NCBI GenBank assembly: GCA_964610505.1
Contig: CAZSXU010000024.1
Location: 91-64,090 of the forward strand
Length of the DNA: 64,000 nucleotides
Direction of reading: 5' to 3'
Source: an uncultured bacterium
GTDB taxonomy: Bacteria > Arandabacterota > Arandabacteria > JAGLYR01
Made by a program: the position numbers and the translations under genes
Part shown: piece after piece, positions 4,520 through 34,658 of the stretch
Layout: every line of letters begins with the position of its first letter
Numbering within the stretch: the stretch's first letter is position 1
The notes under the pieces: model-generated
The model's database searches: none
What the model was told of the DNA's origin: nothing
Seen by the model: the letters and a program-made list of their open reading frames with translations, nothing else

Positions 4520-4750
4520 GCGTTAATCCCCCCTTCCGCCGTGGCGTCGGCGACGCCGAGCCCTGCCCGCAGCGGAACGCCCGAATCCAGGACCACCAAG
4601 AAGGTAACGAAGCACACGAAGAAAACACGAAGGACACGAAGGGGGAAATCGGCGCCCTGCGGGAAAACCCATTTGCGAGTCCCGAGTCCCTTGTCCCGGG
4701 CCCTCGTCACTCGCTCTCAACTCAGAACGTAGAACTTAGAACTCAGAACT

Positions 4751-12546: not shown

Positions 12547-12552
12547 CGGCCC

Positions 12553-13614
12553 TCATTCGATCACACGAATTGTCCCGGCGGCTCCGTCCCGGATTTCGCC
12601 GATCCGGGCGACGGAATCGACCCCGGCGGAGGCCAGCCGTTCCGAGAGCACGGCGGCCTTCCCGGGAGGCGCTGAAATGAGCAACCCTCCGGAAGTTTGA
12701 GCGTCCGCCAGGAGGATGCGCGTGATCTCGTCCATCTTCGCCGGAAACTTGACGAAGGGCTCCAGAAACTCGAGGTTGTTCTTGCTTCCGCCCGGCACGG
12801 CGCCCTGGGACGCGTACTTGAGGGCCGAGGGGAGGATCGGAACGTCCGGGGCGGTAACGAGGGCCGACACTCCGGAGGCTGCGAGCATTTCGTGGAGGTG
12901 GCCGAGGAGGCCGAATCCCGTGACGTCCGTGCAGGCGTTGACGCCGACCTCGGACATCACCTCGGAGGCGGATCGGTTGAGCGCCGCCATGAGAGTCGTG
13001 ATCTCATCAATCTCGTCGGGGTTCGCCAGATCGCGCTTGATCGCCGTGGTGACGATTCCCGAACCCAGCGGTTTGGTCAGGAACAGGCGGTCGCCGGGGC
13101 GGGCGCCGGCGTTGGTGATAACGCGCTCGGGGTGAACCAGGCCCGTCACGGCCATCCCGTACTTGATCTCATCGTCCTTGACGGTGTGTCCACCGACGAT
13201 GCTCACGCGGGCCTCGACGGCCTTGTCCAACCCTCCCTGGAGAATCCGGACCAGGATTTCCAGGGGAAGTTTGTTCTCGGGGAAACCGATGACGTTGAGT
13301 GCGGTCACCGGCCGCCCGCCCATGGCGTAGACGTCGCTCAACGCGTTGGCCGCAGCCACATGGCCGAAAGCGTAGGGGTCGTCGACCATGGCCGTGAAGA
13401 AATCCACCGTCTGAACGAGGGCCAGATCGTCACGCAAGCGATACACGCCGGCGTCGTCCGCCGTGTTGGACCCGACCAGTACGTTGGGGTCCGGCGGAAT
13501 GTTCAACTGCTTCAGAGCCTGTTCCAAGCCCTCCGGGCTCAGCTTGCACGCTCAGCCCGCGCCGCTCGTGGTCTGGGTGAGCCGGAAGGGTTTGTCGTTC
13601 GAGGGCTTTCTCAT
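12553..13614 (-). CDS. selD: Selenide, water dikinase SelD (selenophosphate synthetase), selenoprotein with in-frame UGA (Sec) at 13552-13554
   Basis: The track ORF (12553..13527) starts at TTG inside the gene. Reading the same frame upstream through TGA (plus tca 13552-54) gives [58 protein letters not shown], which aligns with E. coli SelD [30 protein letters not shown]...DPNLLVGNETRDDAAVY with Sec at the Cys17 position. ATG is at 13614. The rest of the protein is typical SelD (AIR-synthase-like: [17 protein letters not shown]...[10 protein letters not shown]). Confidence 0.9.
13520..13551 (-). promoter_or_regulatory. Putative bacterial SECIS hairpin immediately 3' of the selD UGA
   Basis: The mRNA reads UGA GCG UGC AAG CUG AGC CCG GAG GGC UUG G. 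CAAGCUGAGCCC-GGA-GGGCUUGG folds into a ~8-bp stem (including G-U pairs) with a small G-rich apical loop starting ~6 nt after UGA. Confidence 0.5.
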
Positions 13615-13801
13615 GCGCTTGCTCCGTCGTCTCCGTGAGAACACCCAAGACTACTCAGGTCATGAGGAGAACGTCAAGACACAAAAGAGCCGAGAGTGGA
13701 TTTGCCCGAACATGGGCTTGTGTTCCGGGTCGATGTGTGATACGAGAACGGGGATCACTGTCACACGCCCGGTCTGTGTTTCTGATCTCATGGGGGTTCG
13801 G

Positions 13802-15757
13802 ATGAGGGCTTTACGATACCTGCTTATTGCCATCGCGCTCCTGGCGCCCATCCTGCTCGTGGTGCTGATCGGATCGGTGAGTACGTCGCCGCCGGACGAA
13901 GCCACACTGCTCCGCATTAAGGTGCTCGAAGACGATCGGTATCTCGAGAACTGGGAATTGGCGCGCTACACGAAAGACCCAAATCCGCAAGTCCGGTTGG
14001 CTGCGGTGTCGGCCCTGGGGCGGATCGGCCGCGAGGAAGGCGGGGTGAATCTGGTTCGCGCACTCGAAGATCCGGACGGGGACGTACGGGCGGCCGCGGC
14101 TTTCGGCATCGGTCTACTGGACGACAGCACACGGACCGGGGGGTTACTCCGGGCCTTGGAGGACCCCGTCCACGGCGTGCGCGCAAGCGTCGTCGAGGCG
14201 CTCGGGAAAGTGGGAAACTATAAGGTCACCCAACGCCTCCTGGACATGCTGGACAGCCCGTCCCCGGAACTGCGGGGAGAGATTGCACTGGCACTGGGCA
14301 GACTGGAAGACCCCACGGCAATCGAGCCCCTGATGCGCCTTCTGGAGAAGGATCCGGAATCGGGGGTCCGCTGGAAGGCCGCCTGGGCCCTCGAGAAATT
14401 CCACGAAGATCATGTCACGCAAGCTCTGGTTCGTGCCCTGGAAGACAAGGACCCCATGGTCGCCGTCCTGGCGTCCCGGGGATTGCAAAAGCGCGGCGAA
14501 GGCTTCGAGTGGGAGGCCGTCCTGCCTGCACTCAAACATCCGGACTGGCGCGTGCAGGTCAACGTGCTGATGGCTATCGGGAATTCGAGCGACTCCCTGG
14601 CGGTCCCGTCCGTGCTTGAATCCCTGGACTCCCCGAATCACCATGTGAGAACGGCCGCGTGTCTCATCCTCGGTGATCTCAAGGGTTGGCAAGCCGTCGA
14701 GGCGCTGAAAGAGCGGCTCGACGACCCAAGCCCCGATGTTCGAGGGGAGGCCGTCAACGCGCTTGCGCGAATCGGGGGCAGGCGCGTGTTTTCGGACGTT
14801 ACCTCCCGAACCGAGGATTCGGAGCGCTACGTTCGGGTTCGAGCCCACGAGGCACTGGGGCATCTTCAGCTGCCGAAGAGCGTCGCGTTTCTGGTCCCGC
14901 GACTGAAAGACCCGGATTCCCGAATCCGATCCGCCGCGGCCAAGGGGTTGTCCACCCTGAGGCAGAAAGGCTCCACGGAGGCGCTGGTGGGGGCGCTGGA
15001 AGATCCGGACTGGGTGGTCGTCGCCGTTGCCGCCGAGGGGTTGGGCACGTTACGGAGTCGCGGGTCAATACCCGCTCTCAAGAAGACCTTTCATTCATTT
15101 TCCGGAACAACGCTTCAGGACGCGGAGGTGCGACTGGCTGTGATCACGGCGTTCCGGAAGATGGCCGCCTTTGGAGTCGAGCCCATCTACAGGGCCGCTC
15201 TCGAGGACCCCGATATTCGCGTCCGCCGGTTGGCCGGGGATATTCTGCAGGAGAAGGGTGAAACCGCGGTCAAGATTGCTCCGGCGGTCTACGGCGACGG
15301 TTCGCGTGATGGAAGCGGTCTGGCGATGGGTCTCGGGGAGAGGAGAATCCGGATTGAAACCTCGCGCGGACACATTATATGTGTCCTTCACGGGGACGAC
15401 GCGCCGGAGACGGTGGCGAATTTCCTCCGGCTCGCGGGCGAGGGATTCTACGACGGACTGACCTTCCACCGGGTCGTTCCCAACTTCGTCATTCAGGGGG
15501 GATGCCCTCGCGGCGACGGCTGGGGAGATCCGGGATACACCATCCGCTGTGAGATCAACCGGCACCGCTACCTCACGGGAACGCTGGGGATGGCCCTTTC
15601 CGGCAAGGACACCGGGGGGAGCCAGTTCTTCATCACGCACTCGCCTCAGCCACACCTGGACGGCCTATACACGGTGTTCGGCCGGGTGCTCGAGGGGCAA
15701 GACGTGGTCGAGGCGATTGTGCAGGGAGATGAGATTCTGGCGATCGTCGAAATGTAG
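13802..15757 (+). CDS. HEAT/PBS-lyase repeat protein with N-terminal TM/signal anchor and C-terminal cyclophilin-type peptidyl-prolyl cis-trans isomerase domain
   Basis: [25 protein letters not shown] anchor. Many repeats of the form LEDPDxxVRxxAxxALG (HEAT-like). The C-terminus [29 protein letters not shown]...[13 protein letters not shown]...GYTIRCEI...[20 protein letters not shown] is a cyclophilin PPIase. Start chosen at ATG 13802 (alternative ATG at 13790). The track start at 13463 overlaps selD. Confidence 0.8.
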
Positions 15758-15885
15758 ACATCTGTCTCGGAGGAACGAACCCCCACCCGGCCACAGATTT
15801 CACGGATGCGGAGTGTACCCGCCCGGCCCGGCAAGGTGACGAAGATGGGACGAAGAACCGAGAACCGAGAGCCGAGAGCCGGAAT
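15757..15885. repeat. Partial REP/MITE-like element (CCACAGATTTCACGGATG motif) plus GAACCGAGA simple repeat
   Basis: ccacagatttcacggatgcgg lies at ~15791-15811 and gaaccgagaaccgagagccgagagccgg at ~15853-15880, between convergent genes. It shares the terminal motif of the elements at 19456-19560 and 39701-39836. Confidence 0.5.
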
Positions 15886-15957
15886 AGACCATCCCCGGGC
15901 CGCCCGCTCCGCAAGGCCCGCGCCGACAACACGACAAAGCGATAACTGCCGGATTGA

Positions 15958-18291
15958 CTATTCCCTGACGACCAGGAACAACAGGTTCGCGCTTTTCAGT
16001 CCCGCCATGAGGAAACACGTGTTCATCACGCCGAGGAGGGGAATCAGAAGGGATCCCACCAGAAGAGCTCCCAGGGCCGCGCCGAGATGATCGGCCGAAT
16101 CCACCAGACCGGCCGCCCTCGGGACGGTCGCGTTCACATCCAGATACAGCTGGCCCGCCAGTGGGAACTGGATTCCCGCCAGACATCCCGTAGCACCGGA
16201 CAACAGGAAGAACCACAGTTCGGTGGGAACGCCGATCGCCGTCCTTCCTGCATCCGACGGGAGAGCCAACAGCTCGGGTAGCGCCAGGCACAGAAGGATC
16301 ATGGCCGCGTCCACGCATCCCAGAACTCGCGCGGGCCGGATGGGTTTCGCCAAGCGCGCGCTTCCCAGCCGCCCGCCGAAGAAGAGCCCCAACATGAAGG
16401 TCGCCACGACGAGGCCCACTTTCTCATAGATGTATCCGAGCTGGTTCTGAAACGCGAACAGGATCGTAAGTTGAACGCCCATCGCCAGAAAACCGGTTGT
16501 GGCGATCGTCGAGAGGGCGTTGAAAGCGGGCCGGGAACGTTGAGACGAAGGATGCAGCGCGAGCCAGGCGAACCGGACCACCACACACAGAACGAGAGCG
16601 AGAAGCGGCATCCAGAGTCGAAGACCCGCGAGGCGCCTGAGAATGGGGCCGATCTGAGATTCCGAGAACCGGTCCCAGAGAAGCACCGTGTGAAAATAGG
16701 ATACGGGACGAGCGTCACGGTTGAGAATGCCTGCCGGGAAGGTCTCCAGCTCGGCCCGGAACCACGCGGTCCGCTCCGGCTGCACGAGATCGGAGTAGAG
16801 AAGAGGAGAGAAGTGCTCGGATGCAATGTTGCGGTCGGCGTATCGGGCGGCGAGCACGACCGGGTCTTTCGTGATCGAATCGGCGGATCGGGACGCGATG
16901 AACACATTCCGCTGCCCGGGAGTCACGAGGACGTGCGGGAACACCTTGAAGAGGGAATGGAAGAGAGTAGAGCGAAACGGCCCGACCTCCTCCCCCATGT
17001 AGTTGACGGCCCCGCCGACGCTGAAGGCAAAGGTGCCGCCCGGCCTCAGCCGGCCCGCCGCCTGCCGGAAGAACTCCACCGTGTAGAACCGGTTGAGCAT
17101 GGCCGTGGTGGGGTCCGGCAGGCGGGTGATCACGAGATCGTAGAGGTCCTCGGATATCCTCAGAAACGAGCGGCCGTCCATCATATGGATGTGAAGTCTG
17201 GGGTCATCAAACACCGACGCACTCTCTCCTCGGGAGAATCGGCGTGTGAGAGCAATCAGTTCGGGGTCGGTCTCGACGAAATCGAGACTTTCCACGGGGT
17301 GTTTGAGAATCTCCCGGAACATCTCGGGAGTTCCTCCGCCCAGGAGAAGAACCCGCCGCGGCTCGGGATGTTGAACGAGCAGCAGATGTGCCGCGATTGC
17401 CGCGTCGTACTCGTCGGGCAGCGAGAAGAGGGGAGCGCCGTTTCCGTAGAGCGTCGTCTGGCCGGCGAGTCCGCCGGCCGAGAGATGCTGATACTTGGAA
17501 TCCTTCCACTCGATCAGCTCGATGCCGGGGTGTCCGAATGTCCACCGGAGCAGGATGGTCTCCGTGTCAACCCATCGAGCGGCTCCGGCGAGCAGGAATC
17601 CCACGACGCCGACGGACAGAACGGTCACCGCCGTTCGCCCGAGGCGGGATCCGTTCCCTGATCCCGGCGCATGTAGAAGAACACACGCGGCCAGGAGCGG
17701 GAGGGCCGAGAGGGCCTCGACCGAGAGGTGATTCATGCGACCCGCAAACGCGTAGGTGAAGAGGGCGGCCCCGACCACGGACCCCGCGGTCTCGGCGACG
17801 TATATCGTCCCAATGCTCCGCGCCGGGCGAGAGGAGCGGCCCGCGTGGAGGGCGGAGGCCAGGGGAAACGTGAATCCGACGAAGAAGCTGAGGGGCATGA
17901 GGGCCAGGGCCGTCGCCAGGGTGATCTCTGCAAGCGGAATCAGCAGTCCCGGCGGGGTGCCCAGGATTCCGCGCAGGGCTCGAATGAGCACCGTCTGCAC
18001 CGGAAGGCAGATCAGCGCGATCAGGAGGGCACGAGACAGCCAGCGCCGGGGATCCTGAAGGCGGGGAATCGCGCGTGAAGCCACGGCCGCGCCCGCGGAT
18101 ACCCAGATGAGCCAGCACGCGAAAATGAGTCCCAAACTGAGCTCGCTCCCGTAGAAAATTACCAGGAGCTCTCGGACGAGAATGATCTGTCCGGTCATCG
18201 CGTAGAGGCCCATTCCGGCCAACGCCAGGAGGATCGACGCGCGCGAGACCTGTTCCCCCTCATGGTTGTCAAGCATCGCCATGTTCCACAC
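15958..18291 (-). CDS. Spermidine synthase (PABS)-like aminopropyltransferase fused between N- and C-terminal polytopic membrane domains
   Basis: An N-terminal multi-TM region is followed by a PABS/methyltransferase-fold core (VLLLGGGTPEMFREILKHP...VETDPELIALTRRF...HIHMMDGRSFL...YDLVITRLPDPTTAMLNRFYTVEFFRQAAGRLRPGGTFA), then another block of TM helices. Confidence 0.8.
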   Translation of the reverse strand: MWNMAMLDNHEGEQVSRASILLALAGMGLYAMTGQIILVRELLVIFYGSELSLGLIFACWLIWVSAGAAVASRAIPRLQDPRRWLSRALLIALICLPVQTVLIRALRGILGTPPGLLIPLAEITLATALALMPLSFFVGFTFPLASALHAGRSSRPARSIGTIYVAETAGSVVGAALFTYAFAGRMNHLSVEALSALPLLAACVLLHAPGSGNGSRLGRTAVTVLSVGVVGFLLAGAARWVDTETILLRWTFGHPGIELIEWKDSKYQHLSAGGLAGQTTLYGNGAPLFSLPDEYDAAIAAHLLLVQHPEPRRVLLLGGGTPEMFREILKHPVESLDFVETDPELIALTRRFSRGESASVFDDPRLHIHMMDGRSFLRISEDLYDLVITRLPDPTTAMLNRFYTVEFFRQAAGRLRPGGTFAFSVGGAVNYMGEEVGPFRSTLFHSLFKVFPHVLVTPGQRNVFIASRSADSITKDPVVLAARYADRNIASEHFSPLLYSDLVQPERTAWFRAELETFPAGILNRDARPVSYFHTVLLWDRFSESQIGPILRRLAGLRLWMPLLALVLCVVVRFAWLALHPSSQRSRPAFNALSTIATTGFLAMGVQLTILFAFQNQLGYIYEKVGLVVATFMLGLFFGGRLGSARLAKPIRPARVLGCVDAAMILLCLALPELLALPSDAGRTAIGVPTELWFFLLSGATGCLAGIQFPLAGQLYLDVNATVPRAAGLVDSADHLGAALGALLVGSLLIPLLGVMNTCFLMAGLKSANLLFLVVRE

Positions 18292-18524
18292 TCCGCCGAA
18301 AGCACCGGTTCCCTACAGTGTCCGAAAAGGCCGCTCACGTCAAGAACGACGGCGGCCGTTGACAGCGGCTTTGAGTGCATGCTAGCGTGCTGCATGTACA
18401 GACTCTCAGCGTGGGTATCACGGGGGGGATGGGGTGGAGCAGTAGATCATAATGCCTTTCTCCGAAATCTGTTGCTCTATTGGCCGATTGTTCCATGGCT
18501 CCGTCGAAACCGGAGATTCCGCGA

Positions 18525-19433
18525 ATGGACAGAATCTTTGACGTTGTCGGCGTCGGCTATACGGCGTATGACTACCTGGGCATTGTTCCGCACTTGCCGA
18601 AACCCGACACGAAGCTCGAGGTTCGTCAGCTGCTGGAGCAGGGAGGTGGACCGGTGTCCACGGCCCTGGTGACGGTGGCGAGACTCGGGAAAACGGCCGC
18701 CCTCATTGCGAAGATCGGCGGGGATACCCGCGGGCGCCTCATGCTGGACGACCTCAAGCGAGAGAACGTGGACACGAGCGGTGTTGTGGTTTCGCCCGAA
18801 CACCACTCCCAGTTCGCATTCATCATGGTGGAGCCCGGGAAGGGACACCGGACCATTCTGTGGGGACGCGCCGGACTACCCAACCTGGCCGAGGGAGAAA
18901 TCGACATCGATCTCGTCCGATCCGCGCGACTCCTCCACGTGGACAACCATGAGATTCCGGGCGCCATTCAAGCCGCCCGAGCGGCGAAGGCGGAGGGGAT
19001 TCCAATTCTGTTGGACGCCGGAACACCCGATGATCGAATCGAGGAATTGCTCTCCCTCGTGGATTTCGCCGTCGCTTCCCAGTCGTTTCCCGAGAAACTC
19101 ACCGGGCATGGGGATCGCCTCCGAGCCCTCCAGGCCATTCGGGACTACGGCCCGAAGGTGGCGGCCATGACACTGGGCCCGGACGGTGCCGTGGCCGTCA
19201 CGGAGGGCGGTGTCTTTCATTCACCCGGTTTCCCCGTGACGGTCGTGGATACCACCGGCGCGGGGGATGTCTTCCACGGCGCTTTCGCCTACGGGATCAT
19301 CGAGGGTTGGGCCATCCCGGAGATCCTGCGCTTCTCCAACGCCGTGGCGGCCATGAAGTGCGGTTCGTTGGGGGGAAGGACGGGGATTCCGAGCCGTTCG
19401 GAGGTCGAGGCATTTCTGAAGGGTGCAGGCTAA
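18525..19433 (+). CDS. PfkB-family carbohydrate/ribokinase-like kinase
   Basis: MDRIFDVVGVGYTAYDY...GGPVSTALV... with a C-terminal DTTGAGDVFHGAFAYGI (anion-hole/ATP motif). The track ORF starts at TTG 18480; ATG 18525 is preferred, with GGAG ~10 nt upstream. Confidence 0.85.
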   Translation: MDRIFDVVGVGYTAYDYLGIVPHLPKPDTKLEVRQLLEQGGGPVSTALVTVARLGKTAALIAKIGGDTRGRLMLDDLKRENVDTSGVVVSPEHHSQFAFIMVEPGKGHRTILWGRAGLPNLAEGEIDIDLVRSARLLHVDNHEIPGAIQAARAAKAEGIPILLDAGTPDDRIEELLSLVDFAVASQSFPEKLTGHGDRLRALQAIRDYGPKVAAMTLGPDGAVAVTEGGVFHSPGFPVTVVDTTGAGDVFHGAFAYGIIEGWAIPEILRFSNAVAAMKCGSLGGRTGIPSRSEVEAFLKGAG

Positions 19434-19455
19434 AGAGACTCGAAAGCCCAAACTC

Positions 19456-19560
19456 TAGCCACAGATTTCACGGATGGAATCGGGGCGATGGTTAAAGCCA
19501 TCGCCCCGAGAGTCTTCGCCGCAGTGAATCGTAGTCCATCTGTGAAATCTGTGGAAGGGG
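19456..19560. repeat. REP/MITE-like intergenic element: terminal inverted repeats CCACAGATTTCACGGATGG / CCATCTGTGAAATCTGTGG flanking GC hairpin CGGGGCGATGG-ttaaag-CCATCGCCCCG
   Basis: Read directly between the convergent PfkB (+) and YkgJ (-) genes. The same architecture, with the same CGGGGCGATG stem, recurs at 39701-39836. Degenerate copies are at 15791, 47989-48103 and 61136-61187. Confidence 0.6.
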
Positions 19561-19570
19561 TTACGCCTTG

Positions 19571-20131
19571 TCACCGTGTCGCGCTCTCGCGCTCGCGGAC
19601 CTTCACGCCGATGAACTTCAGGAAAGCCTCTTCGCTTCTGTTCTTTCTTCCCTTTCGGTTCCAACGCTTGACGATGTCGTCGAAGTCCCATTCCCGTCGC
19701 GAGAAAACGTCGTGGGATTTCTGGAGGTCCTTGAAAGCTTCGGGCGAGAGGGGCCCTTTGGTAATTCCTTTGCAGCCGTGGTGGCAATGAAGGTTGAACT
19801 CGGGTTCTTCCTCCGTCTCGTCCCGCGGGCAGTAAGGGTGCAGGGCGCACATGAGGGGGCGGTGGACGTAGATGGAACAGCGACCGTCACGGCGGAAGAC
19901 GCAGGTTTCGTTCCGGCGCTTCATTCCGATCATGCGGCGGCCGCCGTCCATCTCCAGCCACTGGTCGTCGGGCGCCGTACCTTCGTCGAAGTCATCCGGT
20001 TCGTAGAACTCGATGAAGTCCTCCGGGTCACACCCGACGTGCTTGATGATCACGTGTATGTCCCCGGCGACGATGAGCGGAATCTGCGAGCAACAGACTC
20101 CGCAGTTGCGGCATTCAAACTCCGGTGTCAA
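19571..20131 (-). CDS. YkgJ-family (UPF0153) cysteine-cluster protein
   Basis: An N-terminal CRNCGVCC cluster plus downstream C...C...CxxHxxC spacing is typical of YkgJ/Fe-S-cluster-oxidoreductase-like zinc/iron-binding proteins. Confidence 0.75.
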   Translation of the reverse strand: MTPEFECRNCGVCCSQIPLIVAGDIHVIIKHVGCDPEDFIEFYEPDDFDEGTAPDDQWLEMDGGRRMIGMKRRNETCVFRRDGRCSIYVHRPLMCALHPYCPRDETEEEPEFNLHCHHGCKGITKGPLSPEAFKDLQKSHDVFSRREWDFDDIVKRWNRKGRKNRSEEAFLKFIGVKVRERESATR

Positions 20132-20577
20132 AGAAACCCTCCCCCAAAAAGTAAATGCACGGGCCGGCGGCCTATGCGTCGGGCGTACGTCGATTCCAAA
20201 CTCTCGAAAGAATACGCCTATCCGCCGCGGCCGTCAAGCGCTTCCTCGAAGGAGGGATGTCGAATCGGGTGATTTTCCCCGCGGCGCGGGTTCCGCCCCA
20301 CCGACCTGCCGGCATCGTCCAACATACGCAAGCGGCCCCGTCGCTGCGGGATTCGTCGAATGCATTGTCAGGAAATGAAATTGACGGCTCCGGCGCAGGC
20401 TGCGTTCGGGGAACGGTTCTTGCATTGCTCCGGGAGGGGTGGAGATGAACAGGTCGATCCGGCCGGTGCCACCCAGGAGCGAACCCGATGACAATCCATC
20501 CCGGCACGTTCTTCGTAGATCAGCCGTTCGCACACCCCGGTCCGTATCGCCCCTGCGGATCGGGGTGTGTCGCTCGG

Positions 20578-22389
20578 ATGAGATGGGCCGTCGTTGTCGT
20601 CACCTGCATCGTGACGGCCGGATTCTCGAAGACCGCGACGGCCGGCGAAACGGTTCACGCCTCTCTCAAGTCGAAGATGCACGCGTCCGGTCCCGCCGAA
20701 CGAATTCCCGTAACCGTTGTGATTGACGCCGCCCCTGATGAATCGGGATTCAAGTGGAACCCGCCGCAATGTGAGACGGGGAGACGCCCGACTCTGGAGG
20801 AGAGACGTTGCGCGATCGCGGGACTCAAGGCGCGCTCCGAGGAGCGACGTGGTGATCTGCTCGAATGGCTGGCCGAGAACGGGAAAGGATCCGACACGGA
20901 CACGGCGCGGGCATTCTGGATTGTCGATGCCGTGACCGCTTCTCTGCCGCCGAGTGTCATCGCCGCGCTCGAGCACCATCCAACCGTTCGGTCGATCTAC
21001 CTGAGGGAACCCCGGGAGGTTCTCTGCACCACCGAGCGTACGGCGATTGCGACCGACGCCCCTCCTCCGGTGTGGTCCGTGACTCGAGTGGGCGCGGACA
21101 CCGTGTGGGCGCGGCACGGCATCGACGGCGCCGGGGTCCTGGTGGCCATGCTGGATACGGGCGTGGACTATACACATTCGGATCTCCAGAGTCGGATGTG
21201 GACGAATCCGCAAGAGATGCCGAACAACTTCATCGACGACGACGGCAACGGTTACGTGGACGATGTCTACGGCTACGATTTCGCACTCCGCGCCGGCGAT
21301 CCGATGGACGACGACGGCCACGGGACGCACACGGCCGGAAGCGTGGCAGGGGACGGCACGGGCGGTCTGGTGACCGGCGTCGCGCCGGGGGCCGGCATCA
21401 TGGCGCTCAAGGTCCTGGAGCATGGGATGGGAGAAGAAGAGGACGCATGGGAGGCCATCCAGTACGCGGTCGAGAATGGGTGCGACATCATCAACATGAG
21501 CATCGGCTGGATCCAGTGCGCGCATCATCCCGCCCGGGCGCTCTGGCGGCAGGCGTGTGAGAACGCCGTTGCGGCCGGGGTAGTGGTTCTGGCCGCGGCC
21601 GGAAACGAGCGGGACGATGAAGGGACCAGTCTATATTGCGATCCTCCCGAACAGATCCGGACCCCGGCGGACGTGCCGGCGGTGATTGCCGTCGGCGCGG
21701 TATCGGCCGGCGACTGGGTAAGCGATTTCAGTTCCGAGGGCCCTGTGACGTGGGCGTCGGTCGAAGGCTACGGAGATTACCCGTACCCGCCGGGACTCAT
21801 CAAGCCTGATTTCTGCGCGCCGGGGCAGAACATCAATTCGACTCTACTGGAGGGCGGCTACAGCGGCCCGACCCGGGCCGGCACGTCGATGGCCACGCCC
21901 CACGTGAGCGGCACCGTGGCGCTCATGCTCCAGGCCGATCCGTCTCTTGGGGTCGACGATATCGAGACCTTCCTTGAGGAAACCTGTCTGGATTTCTGGA
22001 TTCCCGGAAAGGACAACCTGTTCGGGTACGGGCGAATCCACGCGCTCTCGGCGGTCGAGGCCGTTCTCGCGGCCAGGACCACGGCCGTGGCGGCCGGCGA
22101 ACGGCCGTGGCGCGCGTCGTCCGATTTCGTCTGCCATCCGAATCCCTTCAATCCCGAGATCTTCCTTGAATTCAGCCTCGCCGCGCCGGGGACCGTGCGT
22201 CTCGCCGTCTATGACGTGGAAGGACGCATGGTCCGCTTGCTCGCCGAGGGAATGCTGCCGGCCGGGGGGCACCGGTTCCGCTGGGACGGAGTGGACGGAG
22301 GAGGTATCGGCGCCTCGAGCGGTGTGTACTTCTGCCGGTATGAATGTGATGGGATGGCCGACACTCGCAAAATCATTCTGGCGCGATAG
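20578..22389 (+). CDS. Subtilisin-like serine peptidase (S8) with Por_Secre_tail/FlgD-Ig-like C-terminal sorting domain
   Basis: Catalytic triad contexts VAMLDTGVDYTHSDL (Asp), HGTHTAGSVAG (His) and GTSMATPHVSGTVALM (Ser). The C-terminus CHPNPFNPEIFLEFSLAAPGTVRLAVYDVEGRMVRLL...GGHRFRWDG...SGVYFCRYE...RKIILAR is the sorting domain. Start is ATG 20578 (MRWAVVVVTCIVTAGFS signal). The track ORF begins at 20488. Confidence 0.9.
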   Translation: MRWAVVVVTCIVTAGFSKTATAGETVHASLKSKMHASGPAERIPVTVVIDAAPDESGFKWNPPQCETGRRPTLEERRCAIAGLKARSEERRGDLLEWLAENGKGSDTDTARAFWIVDAVTASLPPSVIAALEHHPTVRSIYLREPREVLCTTERTAIATDAPPPVWSVTRVGADTVWARHGIDGAGVLVAMLDTGVDYTHSDLQSRMWTNPQEMPNNFIDDDGNGYVDDVYGYDFALRAGDPMDDDGHGTHTAGSVAGDGTGGLVTGVAPGAGIMALKVLEHGMGEEEDAWEAIQYAVENGCDIINMSIGWIQCAHHPARALWRQACENAVAAGVVVLAAAGNERDDEGTSLYCDPPEQIRTPADVPAVIAVGAVSAGDWVSDFSSEGPVTWASVEGYGDYPYPPGLIKPDFCAPGQNINSTLLEGGYSGPTRAGTSMATPHVSGTVALMLQADPSLGVDDIETFLEETCLDFWIPGKDNLFGYGRIHALSAVEAVLAARTTAVAAGERPWRASSDFVCHPNPFNPEIFLEFSLAAPGTVRLAVYDVEGRMVRLLAEGMLPAGGHRFRWDGVDGGGIGASSGVYFCRYECDGMADTRKIILAR

Positions 22390-24133
22390 GATCAGACCGG
22401 TCCGATGCGGCCGACGACCGCAATAGCGCTTCGGCGCGCAACGTCGAGGCGGGAGCCAGCCCACTCGCCAGGGCTCTGGTGAGCTCCTCTCGGGCCCGCG
22501 CCGGATTTCCCGTCCGGGCATAGATCTGCCCCAGAAGGAAGTGGGGCTCTCCCTGCGTGGGATCCAGCGCGATCGATTGTTCAAGCGCGAGAACGGCCTC
22601 CTTGTCCCTCTTCGTCTGCGCGTAAAGAGCGCCCAGGCCCGTGAAGGCGTTGGCATAGGCAGGATCGATCTCGATCGCCTTCCGGAAATACCGTTCCGCT
22701 TGCTCCGTTTCACCCGCCGCCGCCGACATCCGCCCGAGATTGTTATGCGTTTTGGAGAAATCGGGATTGAGTTCAAGAGAGCGCTCGAATGCAAGGCGTG
22801 CGATCTCCCGGCGCCCGGCTTCGATGTAGGCGATTCCCAGGTTGTGGTGCGCCATGTAGTCGCCCGGTGAGCGAGTGGCGGTCGTTTCCCAGAGTGCCAC
22901 GCTGTTCTTCCAGATTCGGTTCTGTCCGATCGTGACCCCCGCGCAGAACACACACCATCCTGCGAGGACCATGGCAACGATCCTTCCCAGGGAACGGTTC
23001 TTCTCCCTCGAAATCTGAAAGAGAGCACCCAGCGCCAGACAGAATCCGACGGATGGAAGATACATGAACCGGTCGGCCCTGAGTGTCGAGAGAAGAACCA
23101 GATTGCCGGCCGGCAGGAGCGTCAGAGCAAACCACAGGGCGGCGAAACCGAAAGCTCTCCATCTTCGACCGATCCACACGGAGAAGAGGATCACCAGCAC
23201 AAGTCCGAGGATCGTTGCCACGGCTTCTGCGGAAGCGCCCGTTACGTACGCCGTGTCATAGCGAGGTGCGAGATGGAGAGGCAGCATCAGCGAGCCCAGG
23301 TAGGACAGGACGACCTTCGGCATGGTGAGAAGAGTGACGGCTCGACTCGCTGCATTCTCCGGATGAACGACGACGCCCGCGCGGCTGACGAAGAGCTCGA
23401 TCCACGCGAGTCCCAGACTCAGAAGGAGGTAGGGCAGATGTCTCGCGACGCACGCGCCCCGGCACACGGAGTCTCTCTCCCGGTTCCGGAGGAACCAGGC
23501 ATAGGTGGCGAAGAGCAGAAAAGGGAAGACCGCAGCCGTCACCTTCGAGAGAAGGGCAAGAGCCAGCAGGGCGAGAGACACTGCGTAGAGGCCCGGGTGG
23601 AATCGACCGGCGAGACGCGTTCGAAACGCGGCCAGGAGGTACGCGGCCAGGAAGAAGAGGGTCACGAGGACTTCGTTTCTGCCCGACGCCCACGCAACGG
23701 CCTCGACGTGAATCGGATGGACGGCGAACACAAGCGCCGCCGCAAACGCCGGTGCGGAGGCCAAACCCACGGCCAAAGCCAGAAGATAGACGAGGGTTGC
23801 GTTCAGCGAATGGAGGAGAAGGCTGTGCGCGTGAACCGCCGCCGGATTGAGCCCGCCCACCCGGTTGTCCAGAGCGTAGCTCAGCGTCCAGATCGGCCGG
23901 TAGATCCCTCGAATGCCGGACGTTCCCTCTTCCCCCGGCGTGAAGATCCGACGCACATGATCCGCATCCAATGTCCGGATGTGGGGGTTGTTGAGGATGA
24001 CCTCGGGATCGTCCCAGTTGGTGTAATCGTTGCCGATGGCGTTCACATAGACCAGCCACGCGGCCAGAAGGAGGATGGTGACGTGAAGCGCCGTGACTCT
24101 CGCGGAGGATCGCTTCGATGGCTGAGTGATCAT
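22373..24133 (-). CDS. Polytopic membrane protein with DUF2723/PMT_2-like N-terminal domain and C-terminal TPR repeats (TMTC/O-mannosyltransferase-like)
   Basis: ~11 predicted TM helices, then TPR units (YMAHHNLGIAYIEAGRREIARLAFERSLELNP..., NNLGRMSAAAGETEQAERYFRKAIEIDP..., FTGLGALYAQTKRDKEAVLALEQSIALDP...). Confidence 0.8.
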   Translation of the reverse strand: MITQPSKRSSARVTALHVTILLLAAWLVYVNAIGNDYTNWDDPEVILNNPHIRTLDADHVRRIFTPGEEGTSGIRGIYRPIWTLSYALDNRVGGLNPAAVHAHSLLLHSLNATLVYLLALAVGLASAPAFAAALVFAVHPIHVEAVAWASGRNEVLVTLFFLAAYLLAAFRTRLAGRFHPGLYAVSLALLALALLSKVTAAVFPFLLFATYAWFLRNRERDSVCRGACVARHLPYLLLSLGLAWIELFVSRAGVVVHPENAASRAVTLLTMPKVVLSYLGSLMLPLHLAPRYDTAYVTGASAEAVATILGLVLVILFSVWIGRRWRAFGFAALWFALTLLPAGNLVLLSTLRADRFMYLPSVGFCLALGALFQISREKNRSLGRIVAMVLAGWCVFCAGVTIGQNRIWKNSVALWETTATRSPGDYMAHHNLGIAYIEAGRREIARLAFERSLELNPDFSKTHNNLGRMSAAAGETEQAERYFRKAIEIDPAYANAFTGLGALYAQTKRDKEAVLALEQSIALDPTQGEPHFLLGQIYARTGNPARAREELTRALASGLAPASTLRAEALLRSSAASDRSDPIAPE

Positions 24134-24419
24134 TTGCTCGTCGCCCGGCTCGGGTAGTGAAGCTCAGTATCCGCCAGCGGGCACACGTGTGTCAATACTC
24201 CCTCGTGGGCGACGGGGCGCAGACCCAAACTCCAATCCCGGCCGACTTCGGTGTTCCAGCCTGCTTCATGCACAGACTTCCGGTCCTGGGGCCACGAATG
24301 GCCGCGGGCCGGAGCAATAGAGCAACTGGACAATAGGCCGCAATGGAGCCGGGTGTGCTTTTCTACGATGCCTCTTTCCGTAGTCTATTGCTCTATTGAT
24401 CGATTGCTCCATTGCTCTG

Positions 24420-24467
24420 CCCGGATGAAGCATGGCTCGGGGCACCGCGAGCCATGCTTCATCCGGG
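24420..24467 (-). terminator. Perfect 20-bp inverted repeat hairpin (CCCGGATGAAGCATGGCTCG-gggcaccg-CGAGCCATGCTTCATCCGGG) immediately 3' of the stop of the 24468..25157 gene
   Basis: Read directly. The stem abuts the stop codon (plus cta 24468-70). No U-tract follows, so intrinsic-terminator function is an inference. Confidence 0.5.
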
Positions 24468-25157
24468 CTAGTACCTGTACATCGACTTCATTTCACTCCA
24501 GGTTTGAAGCTCGTCTACGGGGCCGCCCTCGCACGGGTTGCCGATGGAGAAGCCATGGCCATAGATCACGGCGCCGTGGTGCTGGACGACGGGATCCTCC
24601 GCGAAATCGTCCGTGCAGTCGAGGGCGTAGTTGTGCGGGAAGGAGGCGTCGCTGTAGTTGCTCGGAGCGTAGTCGATGATGGTGGGTTCCATTCCGGAGA
24701 AATCAACCCGAAGGCGGCCGAAAACGACACCGCCGTCGGCTGACTGCGGTTCGAGACAGTGGGCGTTTCCCCAGGTGACGATGCGCCCGCCGCGCCATAC
24801 ATCTCCCAGGCTGGGAAACGCAGGGGCCGATCCGCACCATGTGATTTCCTCGAAAGACGCGCCGGAACCGGAAACAACCTCAAGAGCGAATTCGATCCCC
24901 GACAGTCCGCTCACGTTATACGCCACCAGGTAGATCGTCCCCTGATCGAAGGATGTGGCCAATTCCTCGGGCGTGAAGTCCCAGTCGATTTCCTCGCACG
25001 ATTGAGGGCAGTCGCTCGGGCAGCCGAGATAACGATCCGATGCCACGCAGTGCATGGCCAGCCGGACGCCGGTGTTCTCACCGGCGGCCGCGCGGCCGTC
25101 CCAGAGCGCTCCGGAAACCGTGATCACTGCAACCGACAGTAAGATTCGAATGTTCAT
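24468..25157 (-). CDS. Secreted hypothetical protein (Cys-rich N-terminal region)
   Basis: MNIRILLSVAVITVSGALW signal. No recognisable family. Start is ATG 25157 (the track starts at GTG 25181). Confidence 0.6.
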   Translation of the reverse strand: MNIRILLSVAVITVSGALWDGRAAAGENTGVRLAMHCVASDRYLGCPSDCPQSCEEIDWDFTPEELATSFDQGTIYLVAYNVSGLSGIEFALEVVSGSGASFEEITWCGSAPAFPSLGDVWRGGRIVTWGNAHCLEPQSADGGVVFGRLRVDFSGMEPTIIDYAPSNYSDASFPHNYALDCTDDFAEDPVVQHHGAVIYGHGFSIGNPCEGGPVDELQTWSEMKSMYRY

Positions 25158-25407
25158 ATCCACCCCCCTCACAAACTTCACCAGTGCATATCAACCGTAC
25201 TCACGAGACGCATGAGTGTCAAGAGACGCGATGAGATGAGGGAGAGACGGTGGGACAGACTCAAACCCGTGGGCCACGGATTTCGCAGAGGGCAACCCGT
25301 AGACTTTCAGCAGGGAGCCTTCACTACAGAGCACAGGGTCCACGAAGGGAGAAGGAAACGGGCGGTCTGCCGGCCGCCCGGGTCCAATCCTCCAATCGTC
25401 CGTTTTC

Positions 25408-27906
25408 CTATCGAATCAGTACCATCTTTCGCGTCAGGTTCTCGGCGCCGACGTCCAGGCGATAGAAGTACACGCCGGTCGAGACTTGGGCGCCCCGGTT
25501 GTCCTTGCCGTCCCATTCAACCACCCACTCCCCCGAGATGATCGAATTCTCGATGAGGGTCACGACCTGCCGTCCGGTGACGTCGAAGACGCGAAGCGTG
25601 GCCCTTGCACCGGATCCCGGTACGGAAAGCCGGATGGTCGTTTGCGGATTGAAAGGATTGGGTACGTTTTGCCCCAGCGCGATGCGGCCCGCCCTCGAGA
25701 CCTCCGTTTCGGCCGCGCCCGTCGTGGCCTCCTGGTACGTGACCAGGGAGAAGTCATCCACGCCGGCCTCTACAATCGAGCCGTCGCCCTCGTCCGCCGC
25801 GATGAATCGGAACTGCACCTGGTCGTTGAAGTCGACATAATCTTCGAGAGAAAACTCGACCCTGTCCCACTCGTGTGTACTTGCGGAAGTGGTTTGCAGG
25901 GTATCCCACGTCGCCCATCCGTCGTCGCTGACGTGGACCCTCCACACGTCGGTGCCCGCCGCGGAGCCGGTGTCGTTCGCGTACCAGTAGTGGTACCGGA
26001 CCGCCGCGTTGGTGTACATGGTGAGATCAAAAACGGGCGACACGAGCGTCGTCCGGCCGCCGTCCACGTCGTAGCTCCCCTGGCCGGAGCCCGCCGCGCA
26101 CTGGGTGATATAGGCGTCCACTCCCGGATCGGGCGTGTGATCGTCCTCGGGCTGGGCCTCGGTCCACTCGGGATCGCATCGCTCCCAGATCCCGGTCGTC
26201 GCGCCGTCGCCGGTCGCGCCCACGGTCCAACCCTTGTGCGTCTCGAAGTCGTCCTCGAAAAAGGCGGTGATGGTTCCGACGAAAAAGGTATACACGTCCG
26301 CAGGAGCGTTCTTCGGATTCATCGCCCGATTCCCGTCCGTGTCTTCCGCCACGATGTAGTACTCGACGAACGTCCCGCCCGGCTGTGGGGGGATGAAGGC
26401 TTCGTATTCATTCGGGGTTCCGGTTGCCGAGAGCTCCAACGTGTTCTCGCCCGCTCCGGTCGAATACCGGACCAGGAGAGAATCCGGATTCAAGGTGCCC
26501 GCGGCCACGATTTCGGTCACGACCCGGTACGGTTGGATGCTGTCCTCGGTGTTCTCCAGGGGGGTATCATGAAGGATCGAGAGCGAGAAAGGCTCGGCCG
26601 CCGTGGCTAGGAACGCGACCGCCGCCTTGACGGAGCGCTCGGCCAGAGTCGAGGAGTTGTAGCTCAGCCCCACCACGTCGCTCGTCGTATGAATGTACGG
26701 ACTGTAGCTGCCGCTGTCCTCGAAGAAGAGAACGGCGTCGTAGCCGTGGGCCCAGAAGGACGCGTGATCGCTGCTGGCGCCGCCGGGAAGATAACCGTCC
26801 ACGATAGGCAGATCCGACACGTAGAGGGCGGCCACATCTTCGAGCACGTCGCGCATCCACTGGGAGTTGGTGTTGCTGATGATGTCCAGATCCAGTGCGT
26901 CTCCGCCGGCCAGGTATCCGATCATGTCCACCGATATCATCCCGACGATGTCTTCGCCGCGTGCGGCCGCGTCCGCCGCGTACCCCTCACTTCCGTAGAG
27001 TCCCAGTTCCTCGCCGCCGAAGGCGATGAATACCAGCGTGTAGCTGAATTCGTAGTTGCTGAGAACCCGGGCGCATTCCAGTGCGCAGACCGTTCCGGAC
27101 GCGTTGTCGTCGGCACCGGGGCAGTTGTTCTGGTCGGACGTGATGGAGTCGTAGTGGCCGCCGATAACGAATACCTTGTCGGGGTCTCCCGAGCCCGGAA
27201 TGACGGCCACAACGTTGTCCTTGTAGATGGAGCTGAAATTGTGGAAATACACGCTGTCGATGCCGTACGATTCGAACTCGGCCTTGATCCATTCGGCCGC
27301 GGCCTGGCAGCTGTCGTGCGTGGCGTAGCGCGTGACGAAATCCTGCAAGCGCTGTACGCCGGCGTCTACTGCGGCGCTGGACACCTCATTGACCATTGCC
27401 TGAATGGCGGGGTCGGCCGCCTTGGCCGCCGTTCGAATCACCGGTCTCTCCACCGGCGCGGGTCGGATGGGCCGCATGAAGACCCGCGCGATCTCGAATC
27501 CCTCCGCCGCAAGGGAGTGAATCTCCCCCTCGGTTGCCTCCACGACGGCGTCGAACCCGACGTCATCGAATCCGACGGCATAGAGAATGCGGGCCCTGGT
27601 TTGGAGATCGGAGAGGCGAGCACGGTCCCTTACCCCGACGGTGTAGTACGTCTTTCCCTCGACGGACGCATCCAGGATCCGCCAGTCCACGTCCAACGCG
27701 TCCATTCGCTCGATGTCCCGAGGTCCTGCAACCACCAAGAGGTACCGTTCCATGTCCCGAACGACATTCACGTCTTCGGACAGAAGCCGGGTGGCCGTCC
27801 GAATCTCCGGACCGTTGACAACGATGAGAGCGTTTTCCACAGGCATCGCCGCGATGACCGGCGAAATCGGCATTGCGAAAAGCGCCAAAGCCAGAAGCGT
27901 ACGCAT
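25408..27906 (-). CDS. M28-family zinc aminopeptidase with shared ~175-aa jelly-roll-like domain and Por_Secre_tail/FlgD-Ig-like C-terminal sorting domain
   Basis: Signal MRTLLALALFAMPISPVIAA. M28 core VVAVIPGSGDPDKVFVIGGHYDS...GADDNASGTVCALECARVL...FIAFGGEELGLYGSEGY. A middle FFEDDFETHKGWTVGATGDGATTGIWERCDPEWTEAQPEDDHTPD... domain is shared with the giant C25 protein. The C-terminus LGQNVPNPFNPQTTIRLSVPGSGARATLRVFDVTGRQVVTL...WDGKDNRGAQVSTGVYFYRL...RKMVLIR is the sorting domain. Start is ATG 27906 with a GGAAGGA SD. The track ORF extends to 28227. Confidence 0.85.
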   Translation of the reverse strand: MRTLLALALFAMPISPVIAAMPVENALIVVNGPEIRTATRLLSEDVNVVRDMERYLLVVAGPRDIERMDALDVDWRILDASVEGKTYYTVGVRDRARLSDLQTRARILYAVGFDDVGFDAVVEATEGEIHSLAAEGFEIARVFMRPIRPAPVERPVIRTAAKAADPAIQAMVNEVSSAAVDAGVQRLQDFVTRYATHDSCQAAAEWIKAEFESYGIDSVYFHNFSSIYKDNVVAVIPGSGDPDKVFVIGGHYDSITSDQNNCPGADDNASGTVCALECARVLSNYEFSYTLVFIAFGGEELGLYGSEGYAADAAARGEDIVGMISVDMIGYLAGGDALDLDIISNTNSQWMRDVLEDVAALYVSDLPIVDGYLPGGASSDHASFWAHGYDAVLFFEDSGSYSPYIHTTSDVVGLSYNSSTLAERSVKAAVAFLATAAEPFSLSILHDTPLENTEDSIQPYRVVTEIVAAGTLNPDSLLVRYSTGAGENTLELSATGTPNEYEAFIPPQPGGTFVEYYIVAEDTDGNRAMNPKNAPADVYTFFVGTITAFFEDDFETHKGWTVGATGDGATTGIWERCDPEWTEAQPEDDHTPDPGVDAYITQCAAGSGQGSYDVDGGRTTLVSPVFDLTMYTNAAVRYHYWYANDTGSAAGTDVWRVHVSDDGWATWDTLQTTSASTHEWDRVEFSLEDYVDFNDQVQFRFIAADEGDGSIVEAGVDDFSLVTYQEATTGAAETEVSRAGRIALGQNVPNPFNPQTTIRLSVPGSGARATLRVFDVTGRQVVTLIENSIISGEWVVEWDGKDNRGAQVSTGVYFYRLDVGAENLTRKMVLIR

Positions 27907-29588: not shown

Positions 29589-29720
29589 GCGAATGGGCGA
29601 ATGGGCGAAAGGGCGAAAGGGTCCCGAGAGCCGAGAACCGAGAGCTGAAAGCCGAGAGCCGAGAACCGAGAACCGAGAGCCGAAGGCCGAGAGCCGAAAG
29701 CCGAAAGCCGAGAACCGGAG
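29589..29720. repeat. 9-bp-periodic simple sequence repeat (GCCGAGAAC / GCCGAGAGC / GCCGAAAGC, ~14 units) preceded by (GAATGGGC)2(GAAAGGGC)2
   Basis: Read directly in the divergent promoter region between the GT-like gene (minus, start 29575) and the response-regulator gene (plus, start 29911). A related CCACTTTCGACTCTCCACTTTCGACTTTCGG tract lies at 29771-29801. Confidence 0.65.
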
Positions 29721-29910
29721 TGCGGACCCTCTTCCCTTGTTCCTCGCCCATGTCACTTGCTCTCGGGTACGTCCACTTTCGACTCTCCACTTTCGACTTT
29801 CGGCATTGCATCGGGCCTTTCCCGCTGCGCAAGGCACGAGCCGAAACCGCGTCCCGGCCCCCTCGCGGCCTCTTGACAACCTCTCGGAGCGCGCATACGT
29901 TGGAGCCGTC

Positions 29911-33280: not shown

Positions 33281-33338
33281 CGGGTTTGAATCGTCATCCG
33301 GGTTTCAGACTCGGGTGCGCAGAGAAAGGGAGGGTATC

Positions 33339-34475: not shown

Positions 34476-34658
34476 GAACCGGGACGTTCACCGGTTCCGC
34501 TGCGGCCGATACGACGCCGGCCGCACGCGGGTGGGGGTGGGGCAGCCGGCGAAAACCCTGCCCCCTTCTTCTGCAACCACGGATTGTGCCAACGGACGAG
34601 GGGCGATGGTCGCGTCGCCCCTCACGGTTTCTCTCTCGGTCTCGATGTGACTTGCGGT

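Follow-up and report, generated by a model that had tools for sequence, protein, structure and literature searches.

A mosaic family of intergenic palindromic units carries a nine-base word that recurs across prokaryotic phyla

Intergenic regions in a 64-kb stretch of DNA from an uncultured bacterium (contig CAZSXU010000024.1; this whole stretch is called the window below) carry a family of short repeat units, the clearest of which lies between the convergent genes of a PfkB sugar kinase and a YkgJ-like CxxCxxCC-domain protein. The family is real, it is intergenic and close to gene ends, and its stable predicted fold, its modularity and its copying between sites were all observed. The arms of the units are made of tandem nine-base words, and the same arm word was found in at least about 17 other prokaryotic phyla. 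We read the family as a mosaic repeat similar to repetitive extragenic palindromic (REP) sequences and bacterial interspersed mosaic elements (BIMEs), or to Correia elements, in which the arms would be recognition modules for a putative factor and the transcribed form would be a 3'-end or intercistronic hairpin. We give this reading a probability of about one half; the trans-acting factor and the RNA-level role in it are suggested by analogy with those elements.

An earlier note on this DNA, made from its letters alone, had described a unit with terminal inverted repeats around a hairpin at the PfkB/YkgJ junction, and both arms and the hairpin are indeed there (unit 1). The left arm GCCACAGATTTCACGGATGG (19458-19477, plus strand) begins 25 nt past the PfkB stop codon (19431-19433) and consists of two 9-nt units, G-CCACAGATT-T-CACGGATGG. 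It is followed by a central GC hairpin of 28 nt with an 11-bp stem (CGGGGCGATGG/ttaaag/CCATCGCCCCG, 19481-19508), by a linker with a small predicted hairpin (AGAGTCTTCGCC..., 19509-19535) and by the right arm CCATCTGTGAAATCTGTGG (19536-19554, minus strand; reverse complement CCACAGATTTCACAGATGG); 16 nt separate this arm from the stop codon of the minus-strand CxxCxxCC-domain gene (19571-20131), which converges on PfkB. A second full copy (unit 2), also proposed in that note, occupies 39702-39836 and has the 10-nt stem CGGGGCGATG in common with unit 1. Its left arm GCCACAGATTACACAGATAGG (39702-39722, plus strand) lies 32 nt downstream of the stop codon of a 1480-aa gene (35228-39670), its central hairpin CGGGGCGATGCG/ata/CGCATCGCCCCG (39725-39751) bears a different loop despite the same stem, and its right arm AAATCTGCGAAGATCTGTGAAATCTGTGGC, of three 9-nt units (39807-39836, minus strand), abuts the stop codon of a convergent minus-strand gene (39836-41002). 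A full unit measures 95-135 nt and is composed of an arm, 2-4 nt, the hairpin, a 27-55-nt linker and the inverted arm, the outward-facing arms following the pattern (G)CCACAGATTnCACRGAT over two to three tandem 9-nt words. Units 1 and 2 have the same polarity, and their arms, hairpin stem and, in part, an AGTCTT stretch of the linker are conserved, while the loops and the rest of the linker have diverged, including a 38-nt indel; the arms are better kept than the linkers.

Folding of the units predicted very stable structures on both strands, with an outer stem of about 20 bp around the inner hairpin in both units. The fold energies of the two strands are -70.9 and -56.2 kcal/mol for unit 1 (z = -10.0 and -7.6) and -65.4 and -60.0 kcal/mol for unit 2 (z = -6.2 and -5.4). 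A consensus terminator scan called neither unit because no T-run (U-tract in the RNA) follows the stem on either strand, the tails after the stems being AGAGTCTTCG and ATTCCATCCG.

The arms are built of two to three tandem 9-mers, (D)CCACAGATTnCACAGATT, which start with CCAC; the word is CACAGATTn, with variants CACGGAT and CGCAGAT, and the triple 9-mer written out is CCACAGATTTCACAGATTACACAGATT. Two sister flavours, CACGAAG(nn) and CACAGAG(nn), were also found (a strict period-9 tandem-repeat detector proved too insensitive for cataloguing them), and a single genome, or even a single unit, can hold several flavours. The terminal repeats are therefore not one ordinary inverted repeat, as had been proposed, but arrays of a 9-nt word acting as separate modules, which are seen singly, in same-orientation series, paired with an arm built of another 9-mer type, or with nested inserts. 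The CGGGGCGATG hairpin, which the earlier note had placed at the core of the family, appears to be local cargo: a GC hairpin adjoins only 15 of 244 arrays elsewhere. That either a GC hairpin or the GTAG-tagged REP of a relative, described below, is integral to the family was ruled out, since neither is general.

Copies in the source genome were counted within the window, where the 17-mer CCACAGATTTCACGGAT, allowed 3 mismatches at most, matches 7 times when 0.17 matches are expected (none of 100 shuffles attains this number) and AATCTGTGG matches 9 times when 0.33 are expected; the match at 3200, a lone 9-mer within a gene, is probably due to chance. The degenerate copies suspected at 15791, 47989-48103 and 61136-61187 are real, and to them we add 34577-34640, 41333-41348 and CACGAAG-type arrays at 4593-4645 and 61231-61253. 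In total, the window holds 10 arrays over 6 intergenic regions, with singlets, pairs and clusters all present. All copies are intergenic, as had been claimed, according to our own gene calls, which were obtained with a self-trained codon model that closely matched the database calls on a relative (locus L120, coordinates compared by eye). The further claim that they sit mostly between convergent genes holds for the full units (19458 and 39702) and is not general: the copy at 15790 also lies at a convergent junction, but those at 47990-48098 and 61136 lie between same-strand genes and that at 41333 between divergent ones.

The modularity of the family is best seen in these additional copies. 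A single arm with no inverted partner (GCCACAGATTTCACGGATG, 15790-15808, plus strand) starts 33 nt past the stop codon of a HEAT/cyclophilin gene and is followed by other repeat modules, namely GGTGACGAAGATGGGAC and then CCGAGAG/CCGAGAA 7-mers. Three co-oriented minus-strand arms (47990-48015, 48036-48061, the latter a CGCAGATT variant, and 48080-48098) sit downstream of a DUF401 gene (stop codon at 48134). The mixed-arm unit at 61136-61253 (plus strand) contains a small inserted hairpin that splits a CCACAGATT unit from CACAGATTGCGCAGATT, then an inner hairpin TGCATGGAGGC/GCCTCCATGCA and a right arm of CACGAAG flavour, CCCTTCGTGCTCTTCGTGATTCC; with a left arm of CACAGATT type and a right arm of CACGAAG type, the arms of this unit cannot pair. 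A degenerate unit at 34577-34640 (plus strand), CCACGGATT... with the hairpin GAGGGGCGA/TCGCCCCTC and the pyrimidine-rich tail GGTTTCTCTCTC, starts about 100 nt past the stop codon of gene 33252-34475. Finally, a short degenerate two-unit array, CGCGGATTGCACAGAT (41333-41348, plus strand), occupies a divergent intergenic region, and a five-unit array of CACGAAG flavour (CCACCAAGAAGGTAACGAAGCACACGAAGAAAACACGAAGGACACGAAGGGGG, 4593-4645, plus strand) a convergent junction 3' of a TonB-dependent receptor gene.

Larger assemblies recur as well. A 122-nt mosaic at 15786-15907, composed of the arm, GCAAGGTGACGAAGATGGGAC and CCGAGAG 7-mers, is found again in inverted orientation at 47538-48103 with extra sequence between its modules, including two tandem repeats of about 182 nt, which is a BIME-type organisation. 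The sequence of about 182 nt is tandemly duplicated at 47561-47792, upstream of the minus-strand gene 46832-47413; it belongs to the arm-bearing mosaic, has no Rfam match, and has a 58-nt inverted partner (81% complementary) at 4525-4582, after the TonB-dependent receptor gene. Tandem 7-mers of the types CCGAGAG, CCGAGAA and CCGAAAG form arrays of their own at 29610-29731, 4486-4520 and 15851-15882. The first, of about 17 units, separates the minus-strand gene 28088-29575 from a divergent response-regulator gene at 29806, and shorter runs adjoin 9-mer arms at two convergent junctions; these 7-mers are another short-period intergenic repeat family.

Arm pairing was evaluated in 12 units from 8 genomes. 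The arms are complementary at 91% of positions, 10 of 19 pairs have changed on both sides (0 of 500 shuffles reach that number) and slid registers give less than 50% pairing. This covariation fits base pairing and fits equally well two ends read by one protein. The base between the 9-nt units is mismatched in 6 of the 11 units with letters on both sides; a deliberate mismatch at this position was considered and ruled out, as the distribution of this base in the partner arm equals the background, with A the commonest. Because of the inter-unit mismatches, the background-like partner base and the mixed-flavour units, we take each arm to be maintained for the sake of its own sequence, mutual pairing being dispensable.

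The earlier note had made the case for a family depend on copies beyond the window, and these were found in other genomes and in viral contigs. An exact-match scan for CCACAGATTTCACRGAT in one genome per GTDB species (596 Gb) returned at least 119 loci in at least about 17 other prokaryotic phyla, so the family is not tied to the lineage of the window. As about 140 matches are expected by chance in 596 Gb, the raw number of loci means little and the contexts decide: 84 of the 129 matches listed (78 of 119 loci) show a third tandem unit, or an inverted array with two units or more, or both, within 300 nt, neither of which is forced by the search pattern and each of which has a chance probability well below 1%. 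By record titles, sorted by hand, the loci listed comprise 34 from Bacteroidota, 18 from Planctomycetota, 17 from Chloroflexota, 14 from Verrucomicrobiota/Lentisphaerota, 8 from Acidobacteriota, 6 from Pseudomonadota, including two Asticcacaulis, with about ten further phyla contributing smaller numbers, at GC contents from 0.27 to 0.73. Among the matches listed there are none from Actinomycetota and almost none from Bacillota, although these make up large parts of the genome collection.

The triple unit was also present in 12 stretches of viral contigs, and one contig of 29.7 kb has 13 arrays flanking its genes. Two viral matches were rejected as family units, as they are plain 9-mer minisatellites lacking the inverted architecture and probably represent a different phenomenon: uninterrupted GAATCTGTR or GCAATCTGT 9-mers run for about 26 copies in L130 (6090-6320, a giant-virus GVMAG contig) and for 5-6 copies in L134 (630-675). 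In a further viral contig (IMG/VR 3300037264_001851, 12317-12691; L138), two inverted triple-unit arms surround a 110-aa DNA methyltransferase fragment with an SPPY motif (phrog_67), one arm abutting its stop codon and the other lying 14 nt before its start codon, so that arms can enclose a gene-sized segment. Neither unit 1, searched by BLAST in plasmids and phages, nor a synthetic arm, searched in plasmids, gave a match, a result that sensitivity or low complexity may partly limit. At gathering scores, Rfam 15 returned nothing for the window, and a tRNA was its sole match among 18 carrier loci; a permissive search gave at best meaningless miRNA models (E about 0.07 or higher). Full-text searches of the literature for literal 12-16-mers of the arms found unrelated primers only.

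Overall, with gene calls that were heuristic outside the window, 205 of 215 arrays (95%) are intergenic, against about 19% of the sequence. Among 184 arrays with a called outer gene, the outer (CCAC) end points toward a gene end in 114 and a gene start in 70, the median distance from stop codons being 36 nt, and the junctions (39 convergent, 105 tandem and 16 divergent) show an excess of convergent ones. Altogether, 88 arrays form 45 inverted pairs, which span 47-315 nt. In the window, 9 of 10 arrays are sense to the upstream gene; as a general rule this fails elsewhere, since neither strand is preferred by unpaired arrays that lie between co-directional genes, 31 of them being sense and 26 antisense. 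Flanking bases lengthen the palindrome by 1-4 nt beyond CCAC, and the base at -1 is mirrored in 76% of units compared to 34% in shuffles. This base tracks the lineage: it is G in 23 of 37 cases in Bacteroidota, A in 11 of 18 in Planctomycetota, and mostly G in the window, whose lineage is related to the FCB group (Fibrobacterota, Chlorobiota and Bacteroidota).

By protein homology the window belongs to Candidatus Eisenbacteria/Eiseniibacteriota, and its positions 13311-24413 are identical to a contig of run SRR14699967. In related Eisenbacteria, the same junctions show the same architecture with other flavours (CACGAAG, CACAGAG) or nothing. At the PfkB/CxxCxxCC junction, where the window has its CACAGATT unit between convergent genes, the genes of L120 (77% amino acid identity) overlap and leave no element. 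L123 (76%) has CCACGAAG arms of CACGAAG type around a different GC hairpin, with two more such units nearby; in L123c the hairpin is directly followed by a U/C-rich arm, GGUUUCUCUUCGUG. L127 (82%) retains the CGGGGCGATG stem, in which one inner pair shows a compensated change and the loop is new, together with the right arm AATCTGTGGC; its left arm is of CACGAAG type, and about 250 nt of other repeats are inserted. Past the HEAT/cyclophilin gene of L120, CGCGGATTGCACGGATT lies 14 nt beyond the stop codon. In L142 (63% amino acid identity), the orthologue of gene 39836-41002 is followed by CCACAGAGTTCACAGAGAA and then CGCGAAGGACGCGAAGAA, and that contig ends 73 nt past the stop codon, just beyond the arrays; the contigs L143-145 all end 117 nt after the same orthologue, which are assembly breaks of the type caused by repeats. 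A composite ATCTGCGTAATCTGCGG-N17-19-AATCYGTGAAATCTGTGGC is present, spacer included, both at 48043-48098 of the window and at the PfkB junction of L127. As these sites are non-orthologous and in different genomes, the composite has spread by copying and not by local convergence. Taken together, the junctions indicate that positions tend to persist, that what occupies them changes, and that defined sequences spread by copying from one site to another.

[quoted passage not shown] This stands as far as the units are dispersed, non-coding and hairpin-forming with inverted arms, and does not extend to tags, target-site duplications or a transposase, none of which was found linked to the units in the sequence analysed. 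As in the REP, BIME and REPIN systems of enterobacteria and Pseudomonas, short non-coding palindromic units are placed at gene ends, either alone, as inverted doublets or in mosaic clusters whose linkers vary, without target-site duplication and enriched at convergent junctions, and those systems also have a high copy number. The multicopy extragenic mosaic organisation agrees, and the inner hairpin of unit 1 would fit a 20-40-nt palindrome, but the conserved arms are tandem 9-mers and not palindromes. REP superfamilies are defined by a GTAG/CGTC tetranucleotide tag at one end of the stem-loop (PMC3733652). In three window units the bases before the stems are GAAT, GGTT and CGGA, and 5 instances of GTAG lie no more than 16 nt from arrays where about 12 would be expected. 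The 9-mer word is common to phyla, in contrast to REP sequences, which are species- or genus-specific. The Correia elements of Neisseria and the ERIC (enterobacterial repetitive intergenic consensus) and IRU elements resemble the family in their size (units of about 100-150 bp), in their inverted ends of about 20-26 bp, in their intergenic position and in the lack of an identified transposase; Correia elements have a TA target duplication, occur in one genus only and have ends of a single sequence, in contrast to arrays of a 9-nt word in many phyla. MITEs are similar in having terminal inverted repeats, a small size, no coding capacity, multiple copies and nested insertions, and differ in that the present family has no target-site duplication and no cognate insertion sequence, that its arms are separable and interchangeable, and that it is conserved beyond one lineage. 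For the arms only, the arrays that ribbon-helix-helix proteins bind (omega heptads, ParG boxes, MetJ met-boxes) offer another parallel, being short contiguous words of 7-9 bp, direct and inverted, read cooperatively by a small protein; those occur at few promoters or centromeres per replicon rather than in numerous intergenic regions, and nothing here implicates a protein of this type.

A tblastn search with E. coli RayT, the REP-associated tyrosine transposase (RAYT), against the 64-kb window and 140-odd loci gave a single weak match, in L120. This 212-aa gene (1530-2168 within 1181-2383; metagenome-assembled genome GCA_030630205.1; E = 0.011) has a weak Pfam Y1_Tnp match of 20 bits against a cut-off of 23. 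It has two GTAG-tagged REPs upstream (CCGTAGGGGCGACCCGGTGGGTCGCCC) and an inverted REP doublet downstream and lacks flanking 9-mer arrays; the locus is a canonical REP/RAYT arrangement in a candidate phylum. One CCACGAAGA unit precedes each upstream GTAG REP by about 20 nt, and the REP stem starts with GGGGCGA like the window hairpin; the GTAG REP itself was not found in the window. Further arrays of L120 (153-500 and 9732-10000) are inverted and of short period, with ATTTCCTGT/GGAAATCGG 8-9-mers, AGTCCCTAG and TTCGTG repeats, and because of them intergenic DNA made of short tandem words seems general in this lineage.

The arms are considered recognition modules because their sequence is kept while their mutual pairing is not. 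In the reading that we favour, they would be recognised by a trans-acting protein, either a copying enzyme or a host DNA- or RNA-binding factor. A unit transcribed from the converging genes would form a 3'-end hairpin that blocks exonucleases, and it may offer an RNase III-type substrate and/or impede read-through; the GC hairpin would be lineage-specific cargo, possibly REP-related. REP, ERIC and Correia elements provide the model for these effects: Correia, ERIC and IRU elements are co-transcribed with their neighbours, and their long hairpins are RNase III substrates or mRNA stabilisers. Several observations weigh against this reading. The 30 window genes scanned include neither the RAYT/IS200-like transposase that the earlier note had suggested looking for nor any other transposase or recombinase, no mobilising or binding protein was found, and the genes between arrays in other phyla are housekeeping genes. 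Target-site duplications are absent in 45 units (duplications of 2-9 nt do not exceed shuffled controls), the two full copies are too diverged to suggest recent transposition, and two chance matches inside genes were all that a metagenome scan for the junction of arm and hairpin returned. That a 17-mer should be identical across phyla and have a flanking base linked to lineage is conservation far above that of any REP or MITE family known to us; it points to host-level constraint rather than a selfish element, and the selfish-element reading leaves the word identity unexplained. The 3'-end function, proposed by likeness to known elements, must also face the missing U-tract, flanks in other phyla that are the reverse of a terminator (T-rich before, A-rich after), and the roughly 38% of arrays (70/184) that face a gene start.

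The strongest competitor, which we nevertheless regard as unlikely, is that the 9-mer arrays are double-stranded DNA sites bound cooperatively by a conserved host protein (nucleoid-associated, roadblock or partition-like), with arrays kept by selection and hairpin formation incidental. The same 8-nt core in about 17 phyla, with a base before CCAC that tracks lineage, is what such a protein would leave, as are arms better conserved than linkers, dispensable pairing between them, the indifference of unpaired arrays to transcription, and arrays at orthologous gene ends in relatives with just 63-82% amino acid identity. The flank consensus T-T-A-D before CCACA often makes the terminus DnaA-box-like (TTAT/TTGT-CCACA), but exact TTATCCACA or TTGTCCACA occurs in only about 7% of copies, and internal units (GATTnCACA), spaced 9 bp apart, miss positions 1-2 of the box TTWTNCACA; the resemblance, mostly the common CCACA, is a lead only. 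We presume that other resemblances (parS half-site, CsrA GGA, RNase E, RNA polymerase pause consensus, PUF, boxA) each fit only some of the variants. No candidate protein was found, several 9-mer flavours occur in one genome and even in one unit, and a 9-bp period does not hold successive sites on one face of B-DNA. Moreover, units are missing at some orthologous junctions, so that no individual site is essential (L120), and the composite at non-orthologous sites argues for copying.

Distinctly less probable is a classical MITE, that is, an insertion sequence shortened by deletion and mobilised in trans, its terminal inverted repeats being bound by a DDE transposase. Non-coding, multicopy and intergenic units of 47-315 nt with inverted termini would suit it, and so would the nested and composite copies, the contigs that break at arrays and the arrays in viral contigs. 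The lack of target-site duplications counts against it, as do arms that are single, in series or of mismatched flavours, and a cross-phylum identity with lineage-linked flanks that is unlike recent spread. No full-length element and no autonomous insertion sequence with the same ends was seen in the window and the other loci analysed; distant inverted arrays enclose peptidases, DapB, a glycosylase and the methylase fragment.

It is also quite improbable that the units are bidirectional intrinsic terminators evolving in place, in which the GC hairpin ends transcription of both converging genes and the purine- and pyrimidine-rich arms replace the A- and U-tracts. Their place in the window, 0-36 nt past stop codons, and its retention at orthologous junctions are compatible with termination, as are the relatives' hairpins directly followed by a U/C-rich arm, such as that of L123c, and the degenerate unit at 34577 with its GGTTTCTCTCTC tail. 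Yet the terminator scan calls neither full unit, most arrays elsewhere have no GC hairpin, the flanks are the wrong way round, many arrays face gene starts, and termination does not need a specific 17-mer across phyla. An operator of a single transcription factor, the alternative named in the earlier note, is suggested by the short direct and inverted words but can hardly be right because of the gene context: the neighbours are unrelated (sugar kinase, CxxCxxCC, HEAT/cyclophilin, spermine-synthase-like, DUF401 permease and large surface protein) and nearly all window copies sit after stop codons; a chance or low-complexity artefact is just as improbable, the shuffles excluding chance.

Other repeats were noticed in the window. 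Five tandem 38-nt copies (TCGGTTTCCGGATCAGTTTCGGCCAATCTAAGGCGATG, 45890-46079) lie between, or overlap, two minus-strand genes (45065-45850 and 46069-46839). A 24-nt palindrome that is nearly perfect, GCCCGGATGAAGCATGGCTCGGGG/CCGCGAGCCATGCTTCATCCGGGC (24419-24468, 96% complementary, 2-nt gap), is placed just downstream of the stop codon of gene 24468-25181, and the adjoining 50 nt (24368-24417) are repeated with 82% identity at 18452-18501, near the PfkB start. The 1480-aa gene has three internal tandem repeats of 309 nt (38442-39349). Because of an inverted similarity of 395 nt (74%) between 25889-26283, in an M28 peptidase gene, and 37871-38265, in the 1480-aa gene, these two genes probably have common domain modules (FlgD_ig/T9SS-type proteins). 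At 53600-60350, two paralogous gene blocks about 5.2 kb apart have segments 72-80% identical, with cysteine-rich TGC/TGT motifs that resemble the FAD-binding and 4Fe-4S sites of heterodisulfide-reductase-like oxidoreductases.

In conclusion, interspersed palindromic repeats are well known in proteobacteria, where they are lineage-specific and where the enzyme behind them has been identified for some (RAYT) but not for others (Correia). What differs here is that conservation falls on a tandem 9-nt word. Between the genes of Bacteroidota, Planctomycetota, Verrucomicrobiota, Chloroflexota, Acidobacteriota, some Alphaproteobacteria and phage-like contigs, this word is met again, likewise arranged as inverted arms. 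No such sharing is seen in the comparable repeat families that are known, and the cross-phylum identity with lineage-linked flanks is the main reason why the finding exceeds routine. On the practical side, the arrays break metagenome assemblies at gene ends and could confuse predictors of terminators, small RNAs and MITEs in uncultured phyla. The conservation implies a trans-acting factor of conserved specificity, and since there are cultured carriers (Flavobacterium spp., Chryseobacterium aahli, Capnocytophaga granulosa ATCC 51502 and Asticcacaulis sp. W401b), this factor should be findable by pull-down or phyletic correlation. We tentatively propose, at well below even odds, that the CACAGATTn arrays and their sister flavours are the recognition code, in DNA or RNA, of a putative anciently conserved protein, for which a domesticated transposase or a nucleoid- or RNA-binding factor would be a candidate. 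If so, this protein would be common to the FCB and PVC (Planctomycetota, Verrucomicrobiota and Chlamydiota) groups, Chloroflexota, Acidobacteriota and other mostly environmental phyla, and the palindromic units would be a widespread class of intergenic punctuation, overlooked because its carriers are seldom studied experimentally.

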